NCBI GenBank assembly: GCA_964517985.1 | Contig: CAZFCV010000001.1 | Location: forward strand, 1-24,977 | From: an uncultured Dehalococcoidales bacterium | GTDB taxonomy: Bacteria > Chloroflexota > Dehalococcoidia > Dehalococcoidales > W111 | DNA length: 24,977 nt | Reading direction: 5' to 3' | Shown: positions 1-17,138 of the stretch, piece after piece | Layout of the letters: each line of letters starts with the position of its first letter | Position numbering within the stretch: position 1 is the stretch's first letter | Translations under genes and position numbers: made by a program | Notes under the pieces: generated by a model | The model's database searches: none | Seen by the model: only the letters and a program-made list of their open reading frames with translations | Told to the model about the DNA's origin: nothing

Positions 1-180
1 CTGGCGACGGACGTTCCCACTGCCTGTGGCGAGATATTTGGGGGTAGAATGAGGATTACCGACTACCTTAATTCCCTGAAGGGCAGGAAGGAGTTTGCCG
101 TCCTGTCAATTAGCGACCCTCTGCCCTTCTTCGCCGAGTTACTCATGTTTCCCTACCTGTTGCGAAAGAGGGGCTTCTAA
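1..180 (+). CDS. 3' end of a CDS entering from the left edge; probable ATP-grasp (carboxylate-amine ligase-like) protein of surface-polysaccharide loci
   Basis: Frame 1 is open from base 1 to TAA 178-180: LATDVPTACGEIFGGRMRITDYLNSLKGRKEFAVLSISDPLPFFAELLMFPYLLRKRGF. The Y-L-x-S-L...EFAV...DPLPF.AE C-terminus resembles that family (recognition only, no search run). Confidence 0.45.
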   Translation: MATDVPTACGEIFGGRMRITDYLNSLKGRKEFAVLSISDPLPFFAELLMFPYLLRKRGF

Positions 181-2107: not shown

Positions 2108-3855
2108 GATTTGGGAAGGTGCTGCTGGTTAATCCCGCCTACCATGCGGAGTGGCGGGGGGTTACGCCGCATATAGGTCAGGCGTATCTTGCCCAGACCC
2201 TGCTGGAGAACGGGATTGAATACGATATCCTCGATATGAATCTGGGCTATAAGTGGAAGCATCTGCGGCAGAAGATTAAGGACTTCCAGCCGGAGCTTAT
2301 CGGTGTCAGCCTGATTTCTCTGGAGTACAAGAGGCTATATGCACTCCTATCGGCAATCAAGGATTTTGACCGGCGGGTAAGAATCGTGGTCGGTGGTCCC
2401 CATGTGACCATTATGAGGGAAAGGGTGCTGGAGGACTGCGCTGCCATAGACTACGGTGTTGTTTATGAGGGGGAGGGCACCCTTACCGAGCTCTGTATCG
2501 GCGCACTTCCTGAAAAGGAGATTAGGGGGCTGATGTTCCGGGACGGCGATAGGGTGGTTTATGGCGGGGATAGGGAGTTTGCTGCCAACCTGGATGAGGT
2601 GCCCTGGCCGCGATATGATAAATTTGAGCTGGGCAGGTATATCCAGGAGAGGACAATCTATTCCAGCCGCGGCTGCCCGCAGCAGTGTACATTCTGCCCC
2701 AACCGGATAATATCACCGCTGTTCCGGGCGCGGAACGCCGAAAATGTCGTTGATGAGATTGAATACTGGTACCGCCGGGGCTACCGGCAGTTCAATGTGG
2801 ATGATGACAACTTCAATCAGATAAGGGAACGGGTCTTTGCCGTATGTGATGAAATTGAGCGGCGCGGGCTTACGGGAATGTTCCTGCGTTGCTCCAACGG
2901 CATCCGGGCTGACCGGGTGGACAGGGAGATGCTTGTCCGTATGCGTGAGGTGGGCTTTCGCTATATTGCCTTCGGCGTTGATGGCGGCAATAACCGGATA
3001 GCCGAGAATTTCACCAGCCGCAATAATATAGTTGTTGCTTCAGGCGGTCGTGTCATGGGGCATTACACCGATACCATCCCGGTGGCACAGCAAACGGACA
3101 CCTGGGAGTATAATTGCCTTGATGCCGCTACGGCAAGCAGTGATTGGTTCGGCTTCTACTATGGAACCAGATATGAATCGCTGTCTCAGGTTCAGGCAGC
3201 CGGCTATGAGCTGCATAGCATTGACCTTGCCTCGTTGCTGGCTGACCCCGAAAATGGTGACTTCAGCCTGCAGAGTGGCTCGCCATGCCGGAATTCCGCC
3301 ACGCTTATCTATGGTATCAATGACCCCGATTCACCGTGGCCCTATGAGGGCACTGCTCCCGATATAGGGGCATTTGAGTACGGTTCCGGAGGAGCGACCA
3401 ATTATCCGCCGTCACTTGCCTCCATTGGCAGCCGGTCGGTTGGTGAGGGGGAACTGCTGCAGTTCACCGTCTCCGCCACCGACCCCGATGGTGACGCGCT
3501 GACCTACTCAGCGTCCAACCTGCCGTCAGGGGCGAGCTTTACCCCGGCTACCCGGCTCTTCTCCTGGACACCGACATCGGGCCAGGCAGGAACCTATAGC
3601 AATGTCCGCTTTGAGGTGTCGGACGGAGTCCTGACTGACTACGAGAATATAACCATAACCGTGAACGGCGCTGGGTCGACCTATGAAGACTGGGATGTCA
3701 ACAGTGACGGAGCGGTTAATGTCCTTGACATGGTTCGTGTCGGGCAGTACTGGGATGAGACCGGTACGGTGGCTTGGGTACGGGAAGATGTTAATGAAGA
3801 CGGGGCGGTCAATGTCCTGGATATGACACTAATCGGGCAGCACTGGACTGGATAG
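2104..3855 (+). CDS. In-frame chimera: B12-binding radical SAM N-terminal part (~aa 1-299) fused to the C-terminal tail of a secreted beta-helix-type protein + Ig-like domain + type I dockerin
   Basis: B12-binding domain (LLVNP...VGGPHVT), CxxxCxxC motif CPQQCTFC at 2674-2697, DDNF, FGVDGGNNRI. At ~3001 it switches to NFTSRNNIV...NGDFSLQSGSPC...PDIGAFEYG, then an Ig-like repeat (ATDPDGDALTYS...FSWTP) and two DVNxDGAVNVLD dockerin repeats (3691-3852). Confidence 0.8.
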   Translation: MRFGKVLLVNPAYHAEWRGVTPHIGQAYLAQTLLENGIEYDILDMNLGYKWKHLRQKIKDFQPELIGVSLISLEYKRLYALLSAIKDFDRRVRIVVGGPHVTIMRERVLEDCAAIDYGVVYEGEGTLTELCIGALPEKEIRGLMFRDGDRVVYGGDREFAANLDEVPWPRYDKFELGRYIQERTIYSSRGCPQQCTFCPNRIISPLFRARNAENVVDEIEYWYRRGYRQFNVDDDNFNQIRERVFAVCDEIERRGLTGMFLRCSNGIRADRVDREMLVRMREVGFRYIAFGVDGGNNRIAENFTSRNNIVVASGGRVMGHYTDTIPVAQQTDTWEYNCLDAATASSDWFGFYYGTRYESLSQVQAAGYELHSIDLASLLADPENGDFSLQSGSPCRNSATLIYGINDPDSPWPYEGTAPDIGAFEYGSGGATNYPPSLASIGSRSVGEGELLQFTVSATDPDGDALTYSASNLPSGASFTPATRLFSWTPTSGQAGTYSNVRFEVSDGVLTDYENITITVNGAGSTYEDWDVNSDGAVNVLDMVRVGQYWDETGTVAWVREDVNEDGAVNVLDMTLIGQHWTG

Positions 3856-5349: not shown

Positions 5350-6447
5350 TCAGCCGGTGGCGACGTAACGATAACCGGGGGTACGACTCCCCCACCGGAG
5401 GGTGGCGGTGGTGGGGGAGGGATTGGTCCTACCGAGGATATAACACCACCCCGAATCCACGATGTCCTGGCTCGGGACATCACCAAGACCGGTGCCGATA
5501 TCTGCTGGGAGACAAATGAGTGGAGCACCAGCCAGGTGGAGTACCGGGCAAGCCCGAGCCAGCTTTCGCCCCTTGATGAGACAGCCGTCATCGCCCATAC
5601 GGTTCGGCTGAGCGGACTTGCCCCGGCGACTACCTACTTCTTCCGGGTAATGTCCCAGGACGAGGCGGGTAACCGGGCAGTGTCTGATGAATACAGCTTC
5701 ACCACCCTGGGAGAGCCAGCCGCTTTTACCGTGAGCGCACTGAATATAGATCCGGCTGATGTCTACGTTGGGGAGGCAGTACCCATCTTTGTCCTGGTGA
5801 CGAATAACGGCGATGTTGCCGGGGACTATGAAGTAGTGCTGAAGATTGATGGTGTGGTGGTGGCGACAAAAAATGTCACCGGCTTAGCCAGCGGTGCCAG
5901 CCAGGAGGTAACGTTCAACGCAGCCAGAGATAGTGCCGGGGTCTTCACGGTTGATGTTAATGGCGTTACCGCTTCATTTATCGTTAGAACAGTGCCAACG
6001 GCAGAGCTAGCCCTGGCTAGCCTTACTCCCCGGTATGATGCGGAGACGCAGCAGCTTACCTTTGCCCGGGTAATCTACCAGGTGGACAATCTGAACGAGC
6101 CGATGTCAGACGTTGAGCTTATCCTAAAGGTGAGCCTGGATGGCGAACCCCTGGAAGAGCTCTCTCTCCTCTCGGCAAGCCGGCTGGACCTGGGGGGGGC
6201 GGGCGGTATCCTGGATTATTCACCTCCGCAGGGGTGGCAGAGCGGTATCTATACCTTTGAAGCGGAACTATATACCGGCGGCAGGCTGCACACAACCACA
6301 GTGAAGGAACTGGAAGTCACGGTAAACCCTGATGCGGCAGTGGTCAGCTGGGCTGTCCTGGGCGGAATAATCGGAGTCACCATGATTGCCATTGCCGGTA
6401 CGATGCTGGTTGTATTACGGCGCCGGCGCAGTATGCTGAGGGCTTAG
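4858..6447 (+). CDS. Membrane-anchored surface protein: signal peptide, cohesin, Pro/Gly linker, FN3-like, CARDB-like and a further beta domain, C-terminal TM helix (anchoring scaffoldin-like)
   Basis: Same signal peptide and cohesin as 3868; linker TTPPPEGGGGGG; FN3-like DITPPRI...ICWETNE...LSGLAPATTYFFRV; CARDB-like FTVSALNIDP...VTNNGD..G.YEVVLKIDG; hydrophobic WAVLGGIIGVTMIAIAGTMLVVL then RRRR. Confidence 0.85.
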   Translation: MRFGGWFNLLRCGAILLIVGLGVPLAGLVAAAGETIVSVSPSSQTVDAGGTFTIDIAVEPGEAIAGVQFDLGFDPSLVTVSGVEEGNLLSQGGASTYFISGDIDNGAGTVTGVAGAIISPGQTVSTAGTFAVITLVAGTVDGTSSLELSNVVAGDINGNSVPIISAGGDVTITGGTTPPPEGGGGGGGIGPTEDITPPRIHDVLARDITKTGADICWETNEWSTSQVEYRASPSQLSPLDETAVIAHTVRLSGLAPATTYFFRVMSQDEAGNRAVSDEYSFTTLGEPAAFTVSALNIDPADVYVGEAVPIFVLVTNNGDVAGDYEVVLKIDGVVVATKNVTGLASGASQEVTFNAARDSAGVFTVDVNGVTASFIVRTVPTAELALASLTPRYDAETQQLTFARVIYQVDNLNEPMSDVELILKVSLDGEPLEELSLLSASRLDLGGAGGILDYSPPQGWQSGIYTFEAELYTGGRLHTTTVKELEVTVNPDAAVVSWAVLGGIIGVTMIAIAGTMLVVLRRRRSMLRA

Positions 6448-10813: not shown

Positions 10814-10842
10814 TTGAAGAGCTACGTGGTTTGGTGTACAAT
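10814..10842 (+). promoter_or_regulatory. Promoter for the his operon
   Basis: TTGAAG (10814-10819), 17 nt, TACAAT (10837-10842). It overlaps the ORF-track start at 10831, so the true hisZ start is probably ATG 10870. Confidence 0.65.
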
Positions 10843-10869
10843 TTACCAGCTACTGTGGAGAGGGTGACA

Positions 10870-12129
10870 ATGAAAATGCAGAGGTGCAAGGGCAGCCGGG
10901 ACCTTTCCCCTGAGGAGATGAGGCGGTTCCGCCTCATTGAGGGGGTGTTCCGGGATTGCTGTCTCGGGGCAGGCTACGGGGAGGTTAGAACGCCGACGGT
11001 GGAATACCTGCACCTCTTTACGGCGACGGGGACACTTACCCCGAGCACGCTGCGCCGGGTATATTCCTTTCTGGACTGGGATGGCTGGAGCGGGGAGAGG
11101 GTTGTCCTGAGACCCGATGGCACCATTCCCATCGCCAGGCTCTATGTTGAGAACACGGCGATGGAGCTGGCAAAGCTGTTCTACGTTGCCAATGTCTTTA
11201 TCTTTGAGGAGACGGGGGCGAAGACAAGGGAGCGGTGGCAGGGTGGGGTTGAGCTTATCGGTGCCGGCTCGGCTCTGGCTGACGTGGAGCTGATAACGCT
11301 AGCTTGGGATGTCCTGAGCCGGTTGCCGCTTGGGGGGGTGGAGCTGAGGCTATCGCACGTTGGCTTGATACGGGCGCTGCTTGTTGAGCTCGGGCTGAGC
11401 CGCAGCGAGCAGATAAAGGTATTTGACCAGATTATGGACGGTGATGCTGGGGCGCTGGCGAGGCTAAAACCAAAGCACTCGGAGCTGGGCAGGGCGCTTT
11501 CCCCCTTGCTGGAGCTCAAGGGCAATTCTTCCGGGTTTCTGCACAACTTCAAGACGCTGTGCCACCGGGAGCTGCCCCGCCTTGAGCCTCACATTGACGA
11601 CTTTCTCGCCGTCGTTAGCCTGCTTGATGCCCTTGGCTATGACTACCAGATTGACATTGCCTCCGGAGCGGGGTTTGAGTACTATACCGGGGCGACCTTT
11701 CAGTTCTTCCTGGGTGGGGAGAAGATAGGGGGTGGGGGGAGATATGATGCCCTTATCCCCCTGATGGGGGGGCGCAGTGTTCCCGCCTCCGGGTTTGCCC
11801 TTTACCTTGACCGGCTGATGAGCCGGCTGTCGCGACAGAGCCGGGCAGAGCCCCCATCGCGCCGCATCCTGGTTATCGCTGACCCCGGTGACGAGCGGGC
11901 ATTACAGCAGGGCTTTGCCGTTGCCCGCTGCCTCCGTGAAGCCGGATGGGTGGCGGAGCTTGGTCTGGTTGCCCGGCAGCAGGCTGATTTCCGCTGGACT
12001 GTGGAGGCTAAGCCACCCCACTTTGTCCTGACCGACCGGGTCGGGCAGAGAAGATTTGAGGTGCCGGCGGCGGACGAGGTCCGGGCGCTGCTGGAAAAGG
12101 AAGGTGCCGATGAAGCTGGCGCTGCCTAA
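10870..12129 (+). CDS. hisZ: ATP phosphoribosyltransferase regulatory subunit (HisRS paralog)
   Basis: KGSRDL, VRTPTVEY, VVLRPDGTIPIAR, Q.GVELIG, FEYYTG..F, GGGGRYD. Motif 2 is degenerate relative to HisRS; located directly upstream of hisG; RBS GGAGAGG before ATG 10870. Confidence 0.85.
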   Translation: MKMQRCKGSRDLSPEEMRRFRLIEGVFRDCCLGAGYGEVRTPTVEYLHLFTATGTLTPSTLRRVYSFLDWDGWSGERVVLRPDGTIPIARLYVENTAMELAKLFYVANVFIFEETGAKTRERWQGGVELIGAGSALADVELITLAWDVLSRLPLGGVELRLSHVGLIRALLVELGLSRSEQIKVFDQIMDGDAGALARLKPKHSELGRALSPLLELKGNSSGFLHNFKTLCHRELPRLEPHIDDFLAVVSLLDALGYDYQIDIASGAGFEYYTGATFQFFLGGEKIGGGGRYDALIPLMGGRSVPASGFALYLDRLMSRLSRQSRAEPPSRRILVIADPGDERALQQGFAVARCLREAGWVAELGLVARQQADFRWTVEAKPPHFVLTDRVGQRRFEVPAADEVRALLEKEGADEAGAA

Positions 12130-13522
12130 GGGGCGCCTTTTGCCGGAGATAGCTGCCCTGCTCCACAGTGCCGGTTGGGGGCTGGGTGGCTATCATGAGG
12201 GGGGGCGCTCTTACCGCCTGAAGCCGGCAAAGTTTCCCGACCTGCTCGTAAAGGTATTCCATGAGAAGGACATCCCGATTCAGGTGGCGGTGGGCAACTA
12301 CGACCTGGGAATCTGTGGCCGGGACTGGATTGAGGAGCTTCTGGCAAAATACCCGAGCAGTGCCCTGGTGAAGGTAAAAGACCTGGGGCAGGGCAGGGGC
12401 ATATTGTTTGTCGCCGCCAGCCGCCGTGCCGGGGTGCCCTCGGTTGCCCGGATGCAGGCGAGAAAGGATACCATTCGTATCGCCAGTGAGTACCCCAATC
12501 TGGCGGAGTCCTTTGCCGTTCAGCTGCGGCTGCGGCGGTTCAGCGTCTTCCCGGTGTGGGGAGCCGCCGAGGTCTACCCGCCGGAGAGCGCCGACCTGGT
12601 ACTGATTTCGGTGCCGGGCGAAGAGGAGCTTGCCGCTTGCGAGCTGGTGCCGGTGAGTGAGGTCTTTGCCTCCAGCGCTTTTCTGATCGCCAACCGGGAT
12701 AGCTGGGAGTCCAGGGACATGCGCCCGGTACTGGCTTCAATCTATGGCAGCCTGCCGGCTGATGATAGCCCGGTTTTTGCCCGCAGCGCCATAAAGGCAG
12801 CGCCCGCCACCGGCAGGCAGCGGACAGAGCCGGCGACGGATGACACGGTCTGGCTGGCTCTGCCCGATGGTCACCAGCAGGAGCCTGCCCTTGACCTGCT
12901 GACCCGGGCGGGCATTGAGATTAGTGATTATCCCTCGCCGTCGGGTAACCGCCGTCCGGCGATTGGACTTCCCGGGGTCAGGGTCAAGGCAATAAGGCCC
13001 CAGGACATGCCGCAGCAGGTTGCCAGCGGTAACTTTGACCTGGCTATTACCGGCCGGGACTGGCTCCGGGAGCACCTTTACCAGTTCCCTTCCAGCCCGG
13101 TGACCGAGCTTTTGTCCCTCAAGTTTGGCAGGGTAAGGATAGTGGCGGTGGTCAGCAACGAGCTGGCGGTGGCGGATATTGATAGCCTGCGGCAGCTTAG
13201 CCGGGAAAGGGCGGTGCCGCTCCGGGTGACCTCGGAGTATGTCAATATTGCCGATAAGTATGCCCGGGATAATCACCTCGGCTGGTACCGGGTGGTGCCG
13301 AGCTGGGGGGCGAGCGAGGGTTTTTTGCCGGAGGACGCCGATGTGCTTATTGAGAACACCCAGACGGGGCGGACACTATCCCGGAACAACCTGAAGATTA
13401 TTGATAACCTTTTTACCTCAACAGCCTGCCTTATCGGCACCACCGGGGCGGTATCCCGCCCGGGCAAAGAGGAACGCATAAGAAAAATCGTTGCCACCCT
13501 ACAGGCGGCAGTGGAGGACTAA
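12110..13522 (+). CDS. hisG: ATP phosphoribosyltransferase made of two tandem short-form HisG domains (470 aa)
   Basis: ATG 12110 (MKLALPKGRL) after AAGGAAGG. Second domain starts at ~12845 (VWLALPDG...DLAITGRD...ENTQTGRTLSRNNL). Confidence 0.9.
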   Translation: MKLALPKGRLLPEIAALLHSAGWGLGGYHEGGRSYRLKPAKFPDLLVKVFHEKDIPIQVAVGNYDLGICGRDWIEELLAKYPSSALVKVKDLGQGRGILFVAASRRAGVPSVARMQARKDTIRIASEYPNLAESFAVQLRLRRFSVFPVWGAAEVYPPESADLVLISVPGEEELAACELVPVSEVFASSAFLIANRDSWESRDMRPVLASIYGSLPADDSPVFARSAIKAAPATGRQRTEPATDDTVWLALPDGHQQEPALDLLTRAGIEISDYPSPSGNRRPAIGLPGVRVKAIRPQDMPQQVASGNFDLAITGRDWLREHLYQFPSSPVTELLSLKFGRVRIVAVVSNELAVADIDSLRQLSRERAVPLRVTSEYVNIADKYARDNHLGWYRVVPSWGASEGFLPEDADVLIENTQTGRTLSRNNLKIIDNLFTSTACLIGTTGAVSRPGKEERIRKIVATLQAAVED

Positions 13523-13523
13523 A

Positions 13524-14846
13524 TTGATAGTTATTGAGGGTTTTCAACCAGCAAAACTGGCGCTGACCCGGTCTCCCCTTGCCGAATCGTATCCGGTATC
13601 TCCCGTATTGCGGGAGAGGCTAAGGGAACTGTTCGGGGTGGAGATTAGCCCGGAGGAGGCGGTGAGGCAGATTGTTGCCGAGGTGCGGGACAGGGGGGAT
13701 GCCGCAATCTGTGATTACACGCTGCGGATTGACGGGGTAGAACTCACCTCGCTGGAGTTAAGCCGGGAGCAGGTAACCAGTGCTTACTATGAGGTGGGTG
13801 AGGAACTGGTATCCGCCCTTAAATTGGCAGCGGGGCGAATCCGCTCCTTTCACGAGGCGCAGAGAAGCGAAATCTGGGGGCAGGCGGCGGGGGAACCGCG
13901 CTGGCTAGTACGGCCGCTGGAGCGTGTCGGTGTTTACGCTCCCGGCGGCACCGCCAGTTACCCGTCAACGGTGCTCATGACGGCTATCCCGGCCAGGGTT
14001 GCCGGGGTTGAGGAGGTTGTTATGGTTACGCCGCCGGGACCGGAGGGGGTCGTCCCCCCGCCGACGCTGGTGGCGGCAGACATCGCCGGGGTTGACCGCA
14101 TCTTTTCCGTTGGTGGCGCCCAGGCAATCGCCGCCCTCGCCTTTGGCACGGAGTCCATTCCCCGGGTGGACAAGATTTGCGGGCCGGGTAATATCTTTGT
14201 CGTCCTGGCAAAGAAGATGGTCTACGGGGCGGTGGCGATTGACGGGCTTCAGGGGCCGAGCGAGGTGGTGGTTATCGCTGACGAGACCGCTGACCCCGGC
14301 TATTGCGCGGCTGACCTTCTGGCTCAGGCGGAGCATGACCCGCTAGCCTCGGCTATCCTGATAACCACCTCCGGACAGCTGGCACTGGCGGTTAACCGTG
14401 AAGTGGAGCAGCAGGTGAGGGATTTGCCCCGTCAGGCGCTGATTACCGAGTCCCTGGAGAACAGGGGGATGATTGTGGTGGTGGCGACAATAGACGAGGC
14501 GATAGAGCTGGCTAACCGGTATGCCCCGGAGCACCTTTGCCTGATGGTGGACAGGGCGGCTTCGTACGTTAGCCGGATAACTAACGCCGGGGCGATAGTT
14601 GTTGGCCGGCAGGCGACGGTGGTCCTGGGCGATTACGTGGCGGGACCAAGCCACGTTCTGCCCACCGGTGGCACCGCCCGGTTCAGCTCGCCGCTCAACG
14701 TGGCTGATTTTATCAAGCTGATAAACGTGGTTAATATAGACGAGGCTACTTCCGGGAAGCTGGGTCAGGCGGCGTCAGTTATTGCCCGGGCGGAGGGGTT
14801 GACGGCTCATGCTCGGGCAATAGAGCGGCGACTCAAGGGCGGTTGA
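13524..14846 (+). CDS. hisD: Histidinol dehydrogenase
   Basis: VYAPGG.ASYPSTVLM, GGAQAIAALA.GT, KICGPGN.FV, GPSEV, QAEHD, APEHL, DY.AGPSHVLPT; TTG start at 13524 with RBS GGAGGA. Confidence 0.97.
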   Translation: MIVIEGFQPAKLALTRSPLAESYPVSPVLRERLRELFGVEISPEEAVRQIVAEVRDRGDAAICDYTLRIDGVELTSLELSREQVTSAYYEVGEELVSALKLAAGRIRSFHEAQRSEIWGQAAGEPRWLVRPLERVGVYAPGGTASYPSTVLMTAIPARVAGVEEVVMVTPPGPEGVVPPPTLVAADIAGVDRIFSVGGAQAIAALAFGTESIPRVDKICGPGNIFVVLAKKMVYGAVAIDGLQGPSEVVVIADETADPGYCAADLLAQAEHDPLASAILITTSGQLALAVNREVEQQVRDLPRQALITESLENRGMIVVVATIDEAIELANRYAPEHLCLMVDRAASYVSRITNAGAIVVGRQATVVLGDYVAGPSHVLPTGGTARFSSPLNVADFIKLINVVNIDEATSGKLGQAASVIARAEGLTAHARAIERRLKGG

Positions 14847-14872
14847 CAATCATTTACCCCTTATGTTAAACT
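14843..14872 (+). promoter_or_regulatory. Internal promoter overlapping the hisD stop codon, driving leader-hisC-hisB
   Basis: TTGACA (14843-14848), 18 nt, TAAACT (14867-14872) with extended -10 TG at 14864-14865. Confidence 0.65.
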
Positions 14873-14899
14873 TGACAGCGAGTTGGGGGTTGTAAAGGC

Positions 14900-14983
14900 A
14901 TGTTTGGCTATCCTGCTTCCCACTTTCATTATAACTTCGCGTTTACCGGGCGCACCAGGTGCGCTTGGGGGGTATTCGTGTAG
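14900..14983 (+). CDS. Putative attenuator leader peptide MFGYPASHFHYNFAFTGRTRCAWGVFV (27 aa)
   Basis: 8 of the first 15 codons are Phe/Tyr/His; lies between a promoter and a terminator hairpin; its 3' part can pair with the terminator 5' arm. Confidence 0.7.
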   Translation: MFGYPASHFHYNFAFTGRTRCAWGVFV

Positions 14984-15022
14984 CCGGTGAGCTGATTAGG
15001 GCTAGCAGGAATGAAGCGAGAA

Positions 15023-15051
15023 CCCTCCCGGGCGGGAGGGAATTTTGTTTT
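15023..15051 (+). terminator. Attenuator terminator upstream of hisC
   Basis: Stem CCCTCCC (15023-15029) / GGGAGGG (15034-15040), 4-nt loop, then AATTTTGTTTT. Confidence 0.75.
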
Positions 15052-15084
15052 AGCGGGCTAGGGTAAGCCGAAGTTATCGGGAGG

Positions 15085-16206
15085 GTGCAAGGGAAAATGG
15101 CTGAGATTGCTGGAATAGAGGGAATGATAAGACCGGAAGTCTTTGCTGTCGGCGGTTATGTTGCCAGCAAGTCCCCGGACTCCCTGAAGGGGGAGGTGGA
15201 GGTGCCGGTAGGGGATATTATCAAACTGGATGCCAATGAGAACCCCTATGGCTGTTCCCCAAGGGTGGCGCCGGCTCTGGCGGAATTCCCCGGTTTTAAT
15301 ATCTATCCCGACGCCGAGCAGGGGGAGCTAAGGAGCCTGCTCTCCGGGTATGCCGGTATCGGCAGAGAGCATATTGTCGCCAGCAGCGGCAGTGACCAGC
15401 TAATAGACCATGTGCTGCGCCTGTTTGTCGGACCCGGTGATGAGGTGATAAACTGTATTCCTACCTTTGATATCTTCCGTTTCCGCACGCAGATGTGTGG
15501 TGGCACCCTGGTTGAGGTGCCCCGGGACGAGAATTTTGCCGTTGACGTCGCTGCGGTAAAGGCAGCCGTAACCAAGAAGACCAAGATAATACTGCTGGCG
15601 ACGCCCAACAACCCCACCGGGACCTTAATCCCCCGGGAAGATATCCTGGAGCTTGTGGGTACCGGGTTGCCGGTTCTGGTGGATGAAGCCTATGGCGAGT
15701 TCGCCGGGGAAACCGCCACGCAACTGGTGCCGCAGTATGAGAATATGATGGTGCTGCGGACCTTCAGCAAGTGGGCGGGGCTGGCTGGCTTGAGAATGGG
15801 CTACGGTATCTTCCCGCTCACCATAGCCGGCTACCTGATGAGAATCAAGCTTCCCTATAGCGTGAATGTTGCCGCCGTGGTCGCCCTCCGTGAATCGCTA
15901 AACGACCTTGAGTATCTGCAGAAAAACGTGAAGGCGATAGTTGCCGAGAGGGAAAGGCTTTTTGCCGGGCTGGAGAAGATGAAATTCCTGAAGCCCTTCC
16001 CCTCACGAGCCAACTTTATTTTCTGCTCCGTCCTGAGTGGCCGGGCGAGCGAGGTTCAGGAGAGATTGCAGAACAGGGGGCTGCTGGTTCGTTACTTCGA
16101 TATCCCGCTGCTCCAGAATGCCATCCGCATTGGCGTGGGCAAGCCGGAGCACACTGACGCCCTGCTCAAAGCACTCCGGGAGATAGGGGAGGAGATAGAT
16201 GGCTGA
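15085..16206 (+). CDS. hisC: Histidinol-phosphate aminotransferase (alternative start ATG 15097)
   Basis: [34 protein letters not shown] (PLP lysine). Confidence 0.95.
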
Positions 16207-16789
16207 CCGACAGGCTGTCGTTAAACGGGAGACAGGGGAGACCAACATTAGCCTGGAGCTCAATCTTGATGGTCGTGGCGAGTGGGAGATGAACACCGGG
16301 AACAGGACGTTTGACCATCTGCTGTCCCAGCTTGCCCGCCACGGTCTATTTGACATAAAAGTATCGGCTACCGGTGATGACCAGCATCACCTGGTTGAGG
16401 ATGTCGCCATTTGCCTGGGCAGAGCCTTCAGTGAAGCCCTGGGCGAGAGGCGGGGTATCGTTCGCATGGCGGATGCTACTGTACCCATGGATGATGCCCT
16501 GGCGGTGGTGGCGGTGGATATCGGGGGGCGGGGGTATACTGTTCTTGACCTGCCCTTTAGTGACAATGATATGGCTGGGTTTCCCACCGACCTTATCCGC
16601 CACTTCCTGGAGTCGTTTGCCATTGAAGCCCGGCTCAATCTCCATGCCCGGGTTGCCTGTGGCACCAACGATCATCACAAGGCGGAAGCCCTGTTCAAGG
16701 CTCTGGGCAGGGTGCTGGGGGTGGCGACCGGTATTGACGGGCGAATTGGCGATGTACCCCCCAGTACCAAGGGTCTGTTGGAGGGCTAG
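16199..16789 (+). CDS. hisB: Imidazoleglycerol-phosphate dehydratase (monofunctional)
   Basis: [39 protein letters not shown]. Confidence 0.97.
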
Positions 16790-16793
16790 GGCT

Positions 16794-17138
16794 TTGAATT
16801 ACGACCTGCTTACCATCGGTGGTGTTATCGTCCTTCTGCTGCTGGCGTTGTTTTTCATCCCCCAGTGGCGCATGAAGCGGGCAATTCCCCAGGTGATACG
16901 CACCTTCCGGGAACGCAGCGCTACCAGTGCCAGGGATGCCAGGACGATTGATGAGCTGGGGCTCAGGCCGCGCAGCCTGGTGCAGGGGATGTTCCGGGGG
17001 CGTGACTACCGGCAGTACGCCCTTGAAATGCTGCTGAAGGCGGAGATTGTCGTGATGACCGAAGAGAGGAAGCTATACCTTTCCGAGGATAAGCTCTACA
17101 GTTCCGGGCTTGATAAGCGCCTTCTGCCTTCCCGCTAG
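16794..17138 (+). CDS. Hypothetical membrane-anchored protein, 114 aa
   Basis: TTG 16794 after RBS GGAGGG. MNYDLLTIGGVIVLLLLALFFIP TM anchor plus a basic cytoplasmic domain; this is the real 3' part of track ORF 16374..17138. Confidence 0.75.
   Translation: MNYDLLTIGGVIVLLLLALFFIPQWRMKRAIPQVIRTFRERSATSARDARTIDELGLRPRSLVQGMFRGRDYRQYALEMLLKAEIVVMTEERKLYLSEDKLYSSGLDKRLLPSR

Follow-up and report, generated by a model that had tools for sequence, protein, structure and literature searches.

Architecture of the his locus

The window analysed here is a stretch of 24,977 nucleotides (nt) from the genome of an uncultured marine Dehalococcoidales bacterium, and it carries histidine biosynthesis genes in the order hisZ-hisG-hisD-[leader]-hisC-hisB. 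The subject of this report is the leader, a candidate ribosome-mediated transcription attenuator that lies within the operon. It is preceded by hisD (histidinol dehydrogenase; 13491-14846, + strand; Pfam PF00815, 527 bits) and followed by hisC (histidinol-phosphate aminotransferase; 15097-16206 from an ATG start, + strand), with a gap of 250 nt to the ATG at 15097 or 238 nt to a GTG at 15085. The protein encoded by hisC, the first gene behind the element, scores 302.6 bits against NCBIfam TIGR01141 (equivalog cut-off, 276.55), sits in his-operon synteny and has HisC enzymes as its closest relatives among solved structures; judged by these features, it is a bona fide HisC. The next gene, hisB (imidazoleglycerol-phosphate dehydratase; 16199-16789, + strand; Pfam PF00475), would also stand behind the attenuator because it overlaps the end of hisC by 8 nt.

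A preliminary description of this DNA had proposed a Phe/Tyr/His-sensing attenuator assembled from an internal promoter, a short open reading frame (ORF), a hairpin, an antiterminator and a terminator, and all of these parts are present where it had placed them. The σ70-type promoter (14843-14872, + strand) consists of TTGACA (14843-14848), an 18-nt spacer, a TG at 14864-14865 and TAAACT (14867-14872); the stop codon of hisD (14844-14846) overlaps its -35 box, and with 10 of 12 matches plus the TG it is the top promoter-like site within 8 kb. Downstream lies an ATG-started ORF of 27 codons, MFGYPASHFHYNFAFTGRTRCAWGVFV (14900-14983, + strand), with aromatic or histidine residues at F2, Y4, H8, F9, H10, Y11, F13 and F15. 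The segment H8-F9-H10-Y11-N12-F13-A14-F15 (14921-14944, + strand) holds the putative control codons. A 44-nt core (14933-14976, + strand) comprises the motif TTC-nnn-TTTACC, a hairpin, TT and a G-tract. In the hairpin (14946-14968, + strand), GCGCAC (14950-14955) pairs with GTGCGC (14959-14964) around a CAG loop, and ViennaRNA extends this stem to 10 bp (-17 kcal/mol); a run of six Gs occupies 14967-14972. The predicted antiterminator would form between GGGGGGUAUUCGU (14967-14979, + strand), which a ribosome at the stop codon would cover, and GCGAGAACCCUCCC (15016-15029, + strand), which overlaps the 5' arm of the intrinsic terminator (15023-15051, + strand). The terminator itself is built from CCCTCCC (15023-15029), a GGGC loop, GGGAGGG (15034-15040) and a T-tract (15043-15051; tail AAUUUUGUUUU), with a stem of 7 bp including six GC pairs and a core-stem energy of -14.7 kcal/mol; it is the top-ranked terminator-like site.

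At Rfam gathering thresholds, neither the whole window nor 11 related loci gave a match, and a permissive search of 14700-15250 likewise returned none; the best sub-threshold score, 16.9 bits, went to rnk_pseudo, for which the cut-off is 55. Membership in His_leader, Phe_leader, Trp_leader or T-box was considered, and none of these covariance models matched. A tRNA or tRNA fragment was also searched for as the identity of the element, and none is present.

A lineage-wide family of leaders

A BLAST comparison of the hisD-hisC junction with 40 relatives showed the two genes adjacent, with no insert, in most of them, and a piece of about 40 nt from the gap recurring elsewhere in these genomes. 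The recurrences share one layout: a TTGACA-type promoter, a short ATG-started ORF, the core, a spacer of 46-61 nt and a terminator. The family core reads TTC-nnn-TTTACC-GGGCGCAC-loop-GTGCGC-TT-GGGGGG and the terminator (A)CC(C)TCC(C)-loop-GGRGG(G)-T-tract, its CC(C)TCC(C) 5' arm being conserved in most members. A covariance model of the 44-nt core (R1), built from 13 sequences with the window among them, matched 111 of 151 genomes sampled from Dehalococcoidales, with one to three matches per genome. The window core obtained the highest score of all matches (68.2 bits; E-value 1.7e-14 in its own genome), partly by construction as a member of the seed.

In the source genome, R1 and a regular expression each find a single match, the hisC leader. 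The aro operon of the same genome has a leader as well, starting with MSLNIAPQGLFYAYYWFYTPAERLGG (G000 contig C25, about 2990-3150; L160, about 390-550), which keeps the G-tract and a CCCTCC/GGAGGG terminator and has lost the GCGCAC hairpin. Since R1 misses this leader, the family counts derived from the model are underestimates.

Leaders were parsed in two rounds, 86 at first and then about 45 more. Of 88 first matches, 86 yield an ORF that begins with ATG and is in frame with the conserved TTT codon; 85 of these 86 ORFs are followed by a terminator-like hairpin, mostly about 100-120 nt past the conserved Phe codon. A promoter of the form TTGACN-16..19-TAnnnT precedes 100 of 106 family leaders and five of the first seven hisC leaders. 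Altogether, about 130 leaders from more than 100 genomes have kept the ORF in its frame, the core with hairpin and G-tract, and the terminator. On this comparative basis the putative attenuator of the window is a member of a family—not a unique arrangement—and more than a product of chance.

This conservation bears directly on an alternative in which nothing is regulated at all: an internal promoter and a leaky terminator would merely separate two transcription units, and the ORF would be a chance frame. Such an account agrees with the number of terminator-like sites in the region, which are not enriched (7 against 7.1 expected), and with the folding of the whole 186-nt stretch, which is not unusually stable (z = -0.8). 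It does not, however, explain why the complete arrangement is kept at so many loci with gene-specific codons, and it would be pointless to set a terminator immediately after a promoter and ahead of its gene unless termination were conditional. We consider the absence of regulation very improbable.

An alignment of 99 family cores (A2) shows how strongly the hairpin is kept: the GCGC...GCGC bases are invariant in 98-99 of the 99 sequences, 92% of hairpin cells are paired, and seven of the ten pairs change on both sides somewhere in the alignment. Two registers of the lower helix, with either TTC or TTT pairing to the G-tract, are both compatible with A2. The hairpin may thus be an RNA polymerase pause element or, through the TTC/TTT:G-tract extensions, a partial protector of the G-tract. 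In the peptide, the residues that come after the conserved Phe are exchanged non-conservatively (T/S/P/I/A, then G/W/R/E/K/V/A), although the nucleotides that encode them are conserved, and indels in the loop shift the downstream frame. On this pattern a nascent-peptide arrest motif (FxFTGRT) was rejected, and the apparent 'FTGRT' signature is therefore a by-product of conservation at the RNA level.

Leader codons follow the downstream gene

The content of the putative control region tracks the gene behind it across the family. The 37 leaders that precede DAHP synthase genes follow the pattern ML.Y.A...YYxYF.-FTGRT and together contain 110 Tyr among 220 residues at positions -8 to -3, numbered such that F15 of the window is position 0. 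The 51 leaders in front of AMP-dependent acyl-CoA-ligase-like genes read ..RLERTKFV-FTRRT.. and have two conserved Phe codons only. Two leaders precede pheS: L113 (genome G070) is Phe-rich, MKYNTSFQFNFNFMFTGR, with F at five alternate positions, and L127 (G035) has three Phe codons. The remaining downstream classes are CaiB-like CoA-transferase genes, two MBL-fold genes, two opine-dehydrogenase-like genes and hisC. The proposal that the control codons fit the regulated pathway is borne out by these pairings: Tyr-rich leaders with DAHP synthase, Phe-rich ones with pheS, and Tyr/Phe plus His with hisC. At codon -2, the family's TTC becomes TAC in the Tyr-type leaders, an exchange of one aromatic residue for another that breaks a potential base pair and therefore argues for selection at the codon level.

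A different view would make the RNA, and not the ORF, the sensor: the GGCGCAC/GTGCGC hairpin would bind a trans-acting protein or ligand, and the ORF would be secondary or incidental. The sequence of the hairpin is indeed kept much more strictly than pausing or protection would require, as its invariant GCGC bases illustrate, and the largest class, that of the acyl-CoA ligases, has no codon run beyond its two Phe codons. Against such a switch stand the ORF, open in a single frame in nearly all leaders, the agreement between codon content and downstream gene, the codon-level swap at -2 despite the broken pair, the placement of the stop codon over the G-tract and the missing Rfam match. A protein- or ligand-controlled switch is, in our judgement, unlikely.

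Several observations concern individual leader classes. In the acyl-CoA-ligase class (e.g. L046:1501-1545, among L045-L132 and others), the leaders extend as ..RLERTKFV-FTRRT.VRLGG; the corresponding ortholog in the source genome (G000 contig C57, about 5530-5620) follows a liv-type ABC transporter gene and has no recognisable core. The pheS leaders L113 and L127 are the counterpart of the E. coli pheM-pheST attenuator. In family f39, a second family leader, containing Tyr or Phe codons, stands before a CaiB-like CoA-transferase gene at 25 loci, in about 24 of 30 genomes sampled; the loci of this class are L065, L071, L124, L140, L144, L164, L166 and L168-L170, and further L172-L183, L185, L186, L188 and L189. 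These leaders link an uncharacterised CoA-transferase operon to the supply of aromatic amino acids.

Predicted switching between antiterminator and terminator

Pairing of the G-tract region (GGGGGGU...UUCGU) with the terminator-arm region (GCGAG...ACCCUCC) is predicted at -21 kcal/mol (duplexfold, 14963-14982 against 15011-15032). When the transcript is cut at 15031, before the 3' arm of the terminator, the antiterminator appears in the minimum free energy (MFE) structure both for the ribosome-free RNA and when a ribosome is placed at codons 9-15; a ribosome at the stop codon, with a footprint of 14964-14993, abolishes it. The switch geometry put forward in the preliminary description was thus reproduced by folding with and without ribosome masking, the antiterminator being lost only with the ribosome at the stop. 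The full-length MFE structure always contains the terminator, as expected for a kinetic switch.

The same behaviour was examined family-wide by folding truncated transcripts of 68 leaders with the ribosome placed at different codons. Pairing between the G-tract and the terminator arm was found in 28 of 68 leaders with no ribosome and in 12 with a ribosome at the stop codon; it rose to 41-56 when the ribosome occupied codons -8 to -2 (with 46 for codon -8) and stood at 37 for codon 0. The commonest offset of the stop codon is +14 nt from the start of the G-tract, and at 63 of 94 leader stops a ribosome in the act of terminating would sit over the G-tract.

In the mechanism that we propose, transcripts could start at the leader's own promoter or at the upstream his promoter, and both would meet the terminator at 15023-15051. 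The G-tract region (14967-14979) would pair with the 5' arm of the terminator to give the antiterminator. A ribosome that finishes the 27-codon ORF would come to sit over the G-tract region at the stop, so that the terminator would form and hisC-hisB would not be transcribed; if charged tRNA ran short at F9, Y11, F13 or F15—and probably at H8 or H10—the ribosome would stall early, leaving the G-tract free to build the antiterminator and allow read-through. From the sequence of the leader we infer both the translation of the ORF and the stalling of ribosomes on it. We hold it to be quite likely that the element is a leader-peptide transcription attenuator sensing Tyr/Phe, and the aromatic input, which rests on codon content, is strongly supported.

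The enterobacterial attenuators trpL, hisL, pheL/pheA and pheM/pheST likewise combine a short ORF carrying cognate control codons with a terminator whose 5' arm has an alternative upstream partner, the position of the ribosome deciding between the two. The window element differs from them in having no Rfam match and a lineage-specific core, in lying inside an operon with its own promoter, in carrying control codons of another pathway (Tyr/Phe) than that of the operon (his), and in that a trp-style protector helix is not clearly present. Leaders that sense several tRNAs through one peptide are known from E. coli ilvGMEDA (Ile/Leu/Val codons) and from the thr leader (Thr/Ile codons). The amino acids concerned in those cases belong to one biosynthetic pathway, whereas aromatic amino acids and histidine would share only HisC.

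Origin of the hisC leaders and the case for a histidine input

A leader between hisD and hisC occurs in 27 genomes: that of the window, its congener G001 and 25 from the sister family f39, in which at least eight genera are represented. All 27 share the synteny NfeD | hisZ-hisG-hisD-[leader]-hisC | purC. In a phylogenetic tree of HisC, families f1 and f39 form one clade (support 95/91), inside which fall all seven leader-bearing genes that were included together with two leader-less f1 genomes. An approximately unbiased (AU) test on monophyly gave p = 0.056, so that monophyly is neither clearly rejected nor proved. As reconstructed from these data, the history of the leader fits one gain and one or two losses. 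Among the best 80 HisC loci in a collection of species-level genomes, the core was found within 600 nt upstream in only two.

The hisC leaders share core, frame, terminator and the M-L-x-Y...YYxYF layout with the DAHP-synthase leaders of Dehalococcoidales, and their common M-[LI]-x-Y start makes them look like a copy of a DAHP-synthase leader. They differ from that class in their position between hisD and hisC and in having gained a conserved His, and the window leader has in addition swapped most of its Tyr for Phe or His. Going by these shared features, the attenuator before hisC is derived from an aromatic leader that is spread across the order.

As the preliminary description had suggested should be checked, F/Y/H codons were followed into the relatives: an orthologous ORF is present in G001 and in the 25 sister-family genomes, with aromatic codons and, but for one exception, His codons kept. 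The dominant signal there is Tyr; individual leaders have as many as nine Tyr codons, eight of which form an unbroken run. No other hisC leader is shifted as far towards His and Phe as that of the window, which reads H F H Y N F A F from -7 to 0. Of the multi-input sensing that had been claimed, the aromatic part is strongly supported, given the Tyr-rich orthologs, and the His part finds its support in codon conservation only. A His codon occurs in 26 of the 27 hisC leaders, mostly eight codons before the conserved Phe, as CAC (20) or CAT (12), and any His codon at all in four of the 37 DAHP-synthase leaders. By Fisher's test this difference corresponds to p ~1e-12 by leader and 6e-9 by residue, figures that overstate independence as the lineages are related.

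These codons can also be read without a histidine sensor, the leader being a purely aromatic (Tyr/Phe) attenuator and the conserved His stemming from the common descent of the hisC leaders or from a constraint of another kind. The typical hisC leader has one His codon against three to nine Tyr codons; that codon lies about eight codons upstream of the core, so that a ribosome stalling on it would scarcely extend to the core; all 27 leaders belong to one clade, and inheritance alone could account for the conservation; and leader L163 has Tyr in place of His. Yet the His is kept across 8-10 genera although the surrounding residues vary widely, both of its synonymous codons are in use, and the parent DAHP-synthase leaders have almost no His (1 of 220 residues at -8 to -3). 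A ribosome at codon -8, moreover, raises predicted antiterminator formation (46/68 against 28/68), and hisB, needed just for histidine synthesis, would be gated too, which makes a His input physiologically sensible. We regard the purely aromatic attenuator as a credible but doubtful account, and a functional His input, for which codon conservation speaks, as only slightly less believable than its absence.

Two further features were seen among the hisC leaders of f39. In G127, a lipoprotein-like ORF of 268 aa (L133:9286-10092, minus strand) lies between hisD and the hisC leader. In L052 and L145, the hisC leaders of G127 and G140, the -10 box is only 9-13 nt from the leader ATG, so that the mRNAs from which some leaders are translated may be leaderless or almost so.

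A predicted dual role for HisC

The source genome, which is 92% complete, yielded only three class I/II aminotransferases: HisC, an AspC-like enzyme, whose gene (G000 contig C19, 10183-11373) adjoins an AsnC-type regulator, and DapL. Behind its diverged Tyr/Phe/Trp leader, the aro operon encodes DAHP synthase, DHQ synthase, DHQ dehydratase and shikimate dehydrogenase first, and also EPSP synthase, chorismate synthase, chorismate mutase/prephenate dehydratase (pheA) and prephenate dehydrogenase (tyrA); no aminotransferase gene was found in this operon. In B. subtilis and T. maritima, HisC has two functions, acting both as histidinol-phosphate and as aromatic aminotransferase (PMC9309667), and HisC-family genes widely serve as aromatic aminotransferases in aro supraoperons, some of them with putative attenuators (PMC1173090); C. 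glutamicum has a narrow HisC plus a HisC-like AroT (PMC3896937). Gene inventory and published precedent agree with a HisC that acts as Phe/Tyr aminotransferase besides its role as histidinol-phosphate aminotransferase, and we lean towards this assignment. It would offer the best explanation for an aromatic leader in front of a single hisC, because HisC would carry out the last step of Phe/Tyr synthesis.

In B. subtilis (aroF-...-trp-hisC-tyrA-aroE) and in proteobacteria (pheA-hisHb-tyrA-aroF), a HisC-family enzyme is co-regulated with aromatic synthesis, for which it performs the final transamination (PMC1173090, PMC9309667). In those supraoperons hisC or hisHb was moved or duplicated into the aro operon, whereas in the window the one hisC has remained among the his genes, and it is an aromatic leader that was inserted before it. 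If the attenuator controls histidine synthesis too, through hisC and hisB, a His input would avert His starvation when aromatic amino acids are plentiful, which would give a reason for the conserved His codon.

The fullest version of our interpretation, which we put forward tentatively, is that an aromatic leader was copied before the single hisC of one clade, gained a His codon, and now integrates the charging of Tyr/Phe-tRNA and His-tRNA, the core being a portable module placed before at least seven gene families in which only the sensor codons were re-tuned. One terminator would integrate both tRNA inputs because HisC would be the shared last- or late-step enzyme of both pathways.

Several points weigh against this interpretation or parts of it. 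The Shine-Dalgarno sequence of the leader is weak, being either a GGGGG run that ends 10 nt before the ATG or an AAAGG that ends 1 nt before it, and a search of sequencing runs for the locus found it in DNA runs only (seawater metagenomes) and in no RNA runs. In the window the antiterminator forms even in the ribosome-free fold, and folding did not demonstrate a trp-style 1:2 protector there. Covariation between the G-tract and the terminator arm was not detected, matched and permuted duplex energies being alike (permutation p = 0.2), because both antiterminator strands are too conserved; the predicted antiterminator thus rests on conserved complementarity and not on significant covariation, and the nearly invariant hairpin likewise offers little evidence of this kind. 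The His statistic derives from just two related lineages, and in most hisC leaders the single His codon is so placed that a ribosome stalled on it would only just contact the core. As to HisC itself, the presence of a leader in the relatives shows no pattern with the number of class I/II aminotransferase genes, and the AspC-like enzyme is another candidate for the role of aromatic aminotransferase.

In the searchable literature we found no account of leader-peptide attenuation in Dehalococcoidia or Chloroflexi; T-boxes are the only RNA regulators of amino-acid genes that we found reported for Dehalococcoides (PMC2494555). New in the present case are the position of the leader within the his operon, a His codon that is conserved and the function predicted for HisC. 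The prediction itself is drawn from sequence only and can be tested at the enzyme: the his-operon HisC of this clade would be a Phe/Tyr aminotransferase that supplies the missing last step of the aro operon. The proposed history would also illustrate regulatory rewiring by moving a small leader, not a gene, and then adjusting single codons, here for His. With the core present in about three-quarters of the genomes sampled, it marks a regulon that takes in DAHP synthase, hisC, pheS, CoA-transferase and acyl-CoA ligase genes, and the leader family could help to annotate uncharacterised genes of these bacteria, which are uncultured and live in marine and subsurface habitats.

Flanking genes and further observations

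The his operon begins with hisZ (start ATG at 10871), which is preceded by a promoter-like site (TTGAAG-17-TACAAT; window 10814-10870) and then a short untranslated region. A leader was sought upstream of hisZ and none was found; the 5' untranslated region is short, and the start of the operon shows neither an attenuator nor a T-box. With up to 488 aa in the ORF listing, the hisG ORF (12056-13522, + strand) is of unusual length, and its HisG domain is matched as two stretches; hisG ORFs of about 470 aa also occur in G127 and G001.

On the far side, hisB is followed by an ORF of about 114 aa (window 16790-17138, + strand) that starts with a membrane helix and has a conserved counterpart in the congener G001; this ORF presumably lies behind the attenuator as well. 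The convergent genes purC and purB come after this small membrane ORF. DNA of the locus was found in seawater metagenomes, and the nearest HisC loci are titled uncultured Dehalococcoidales.

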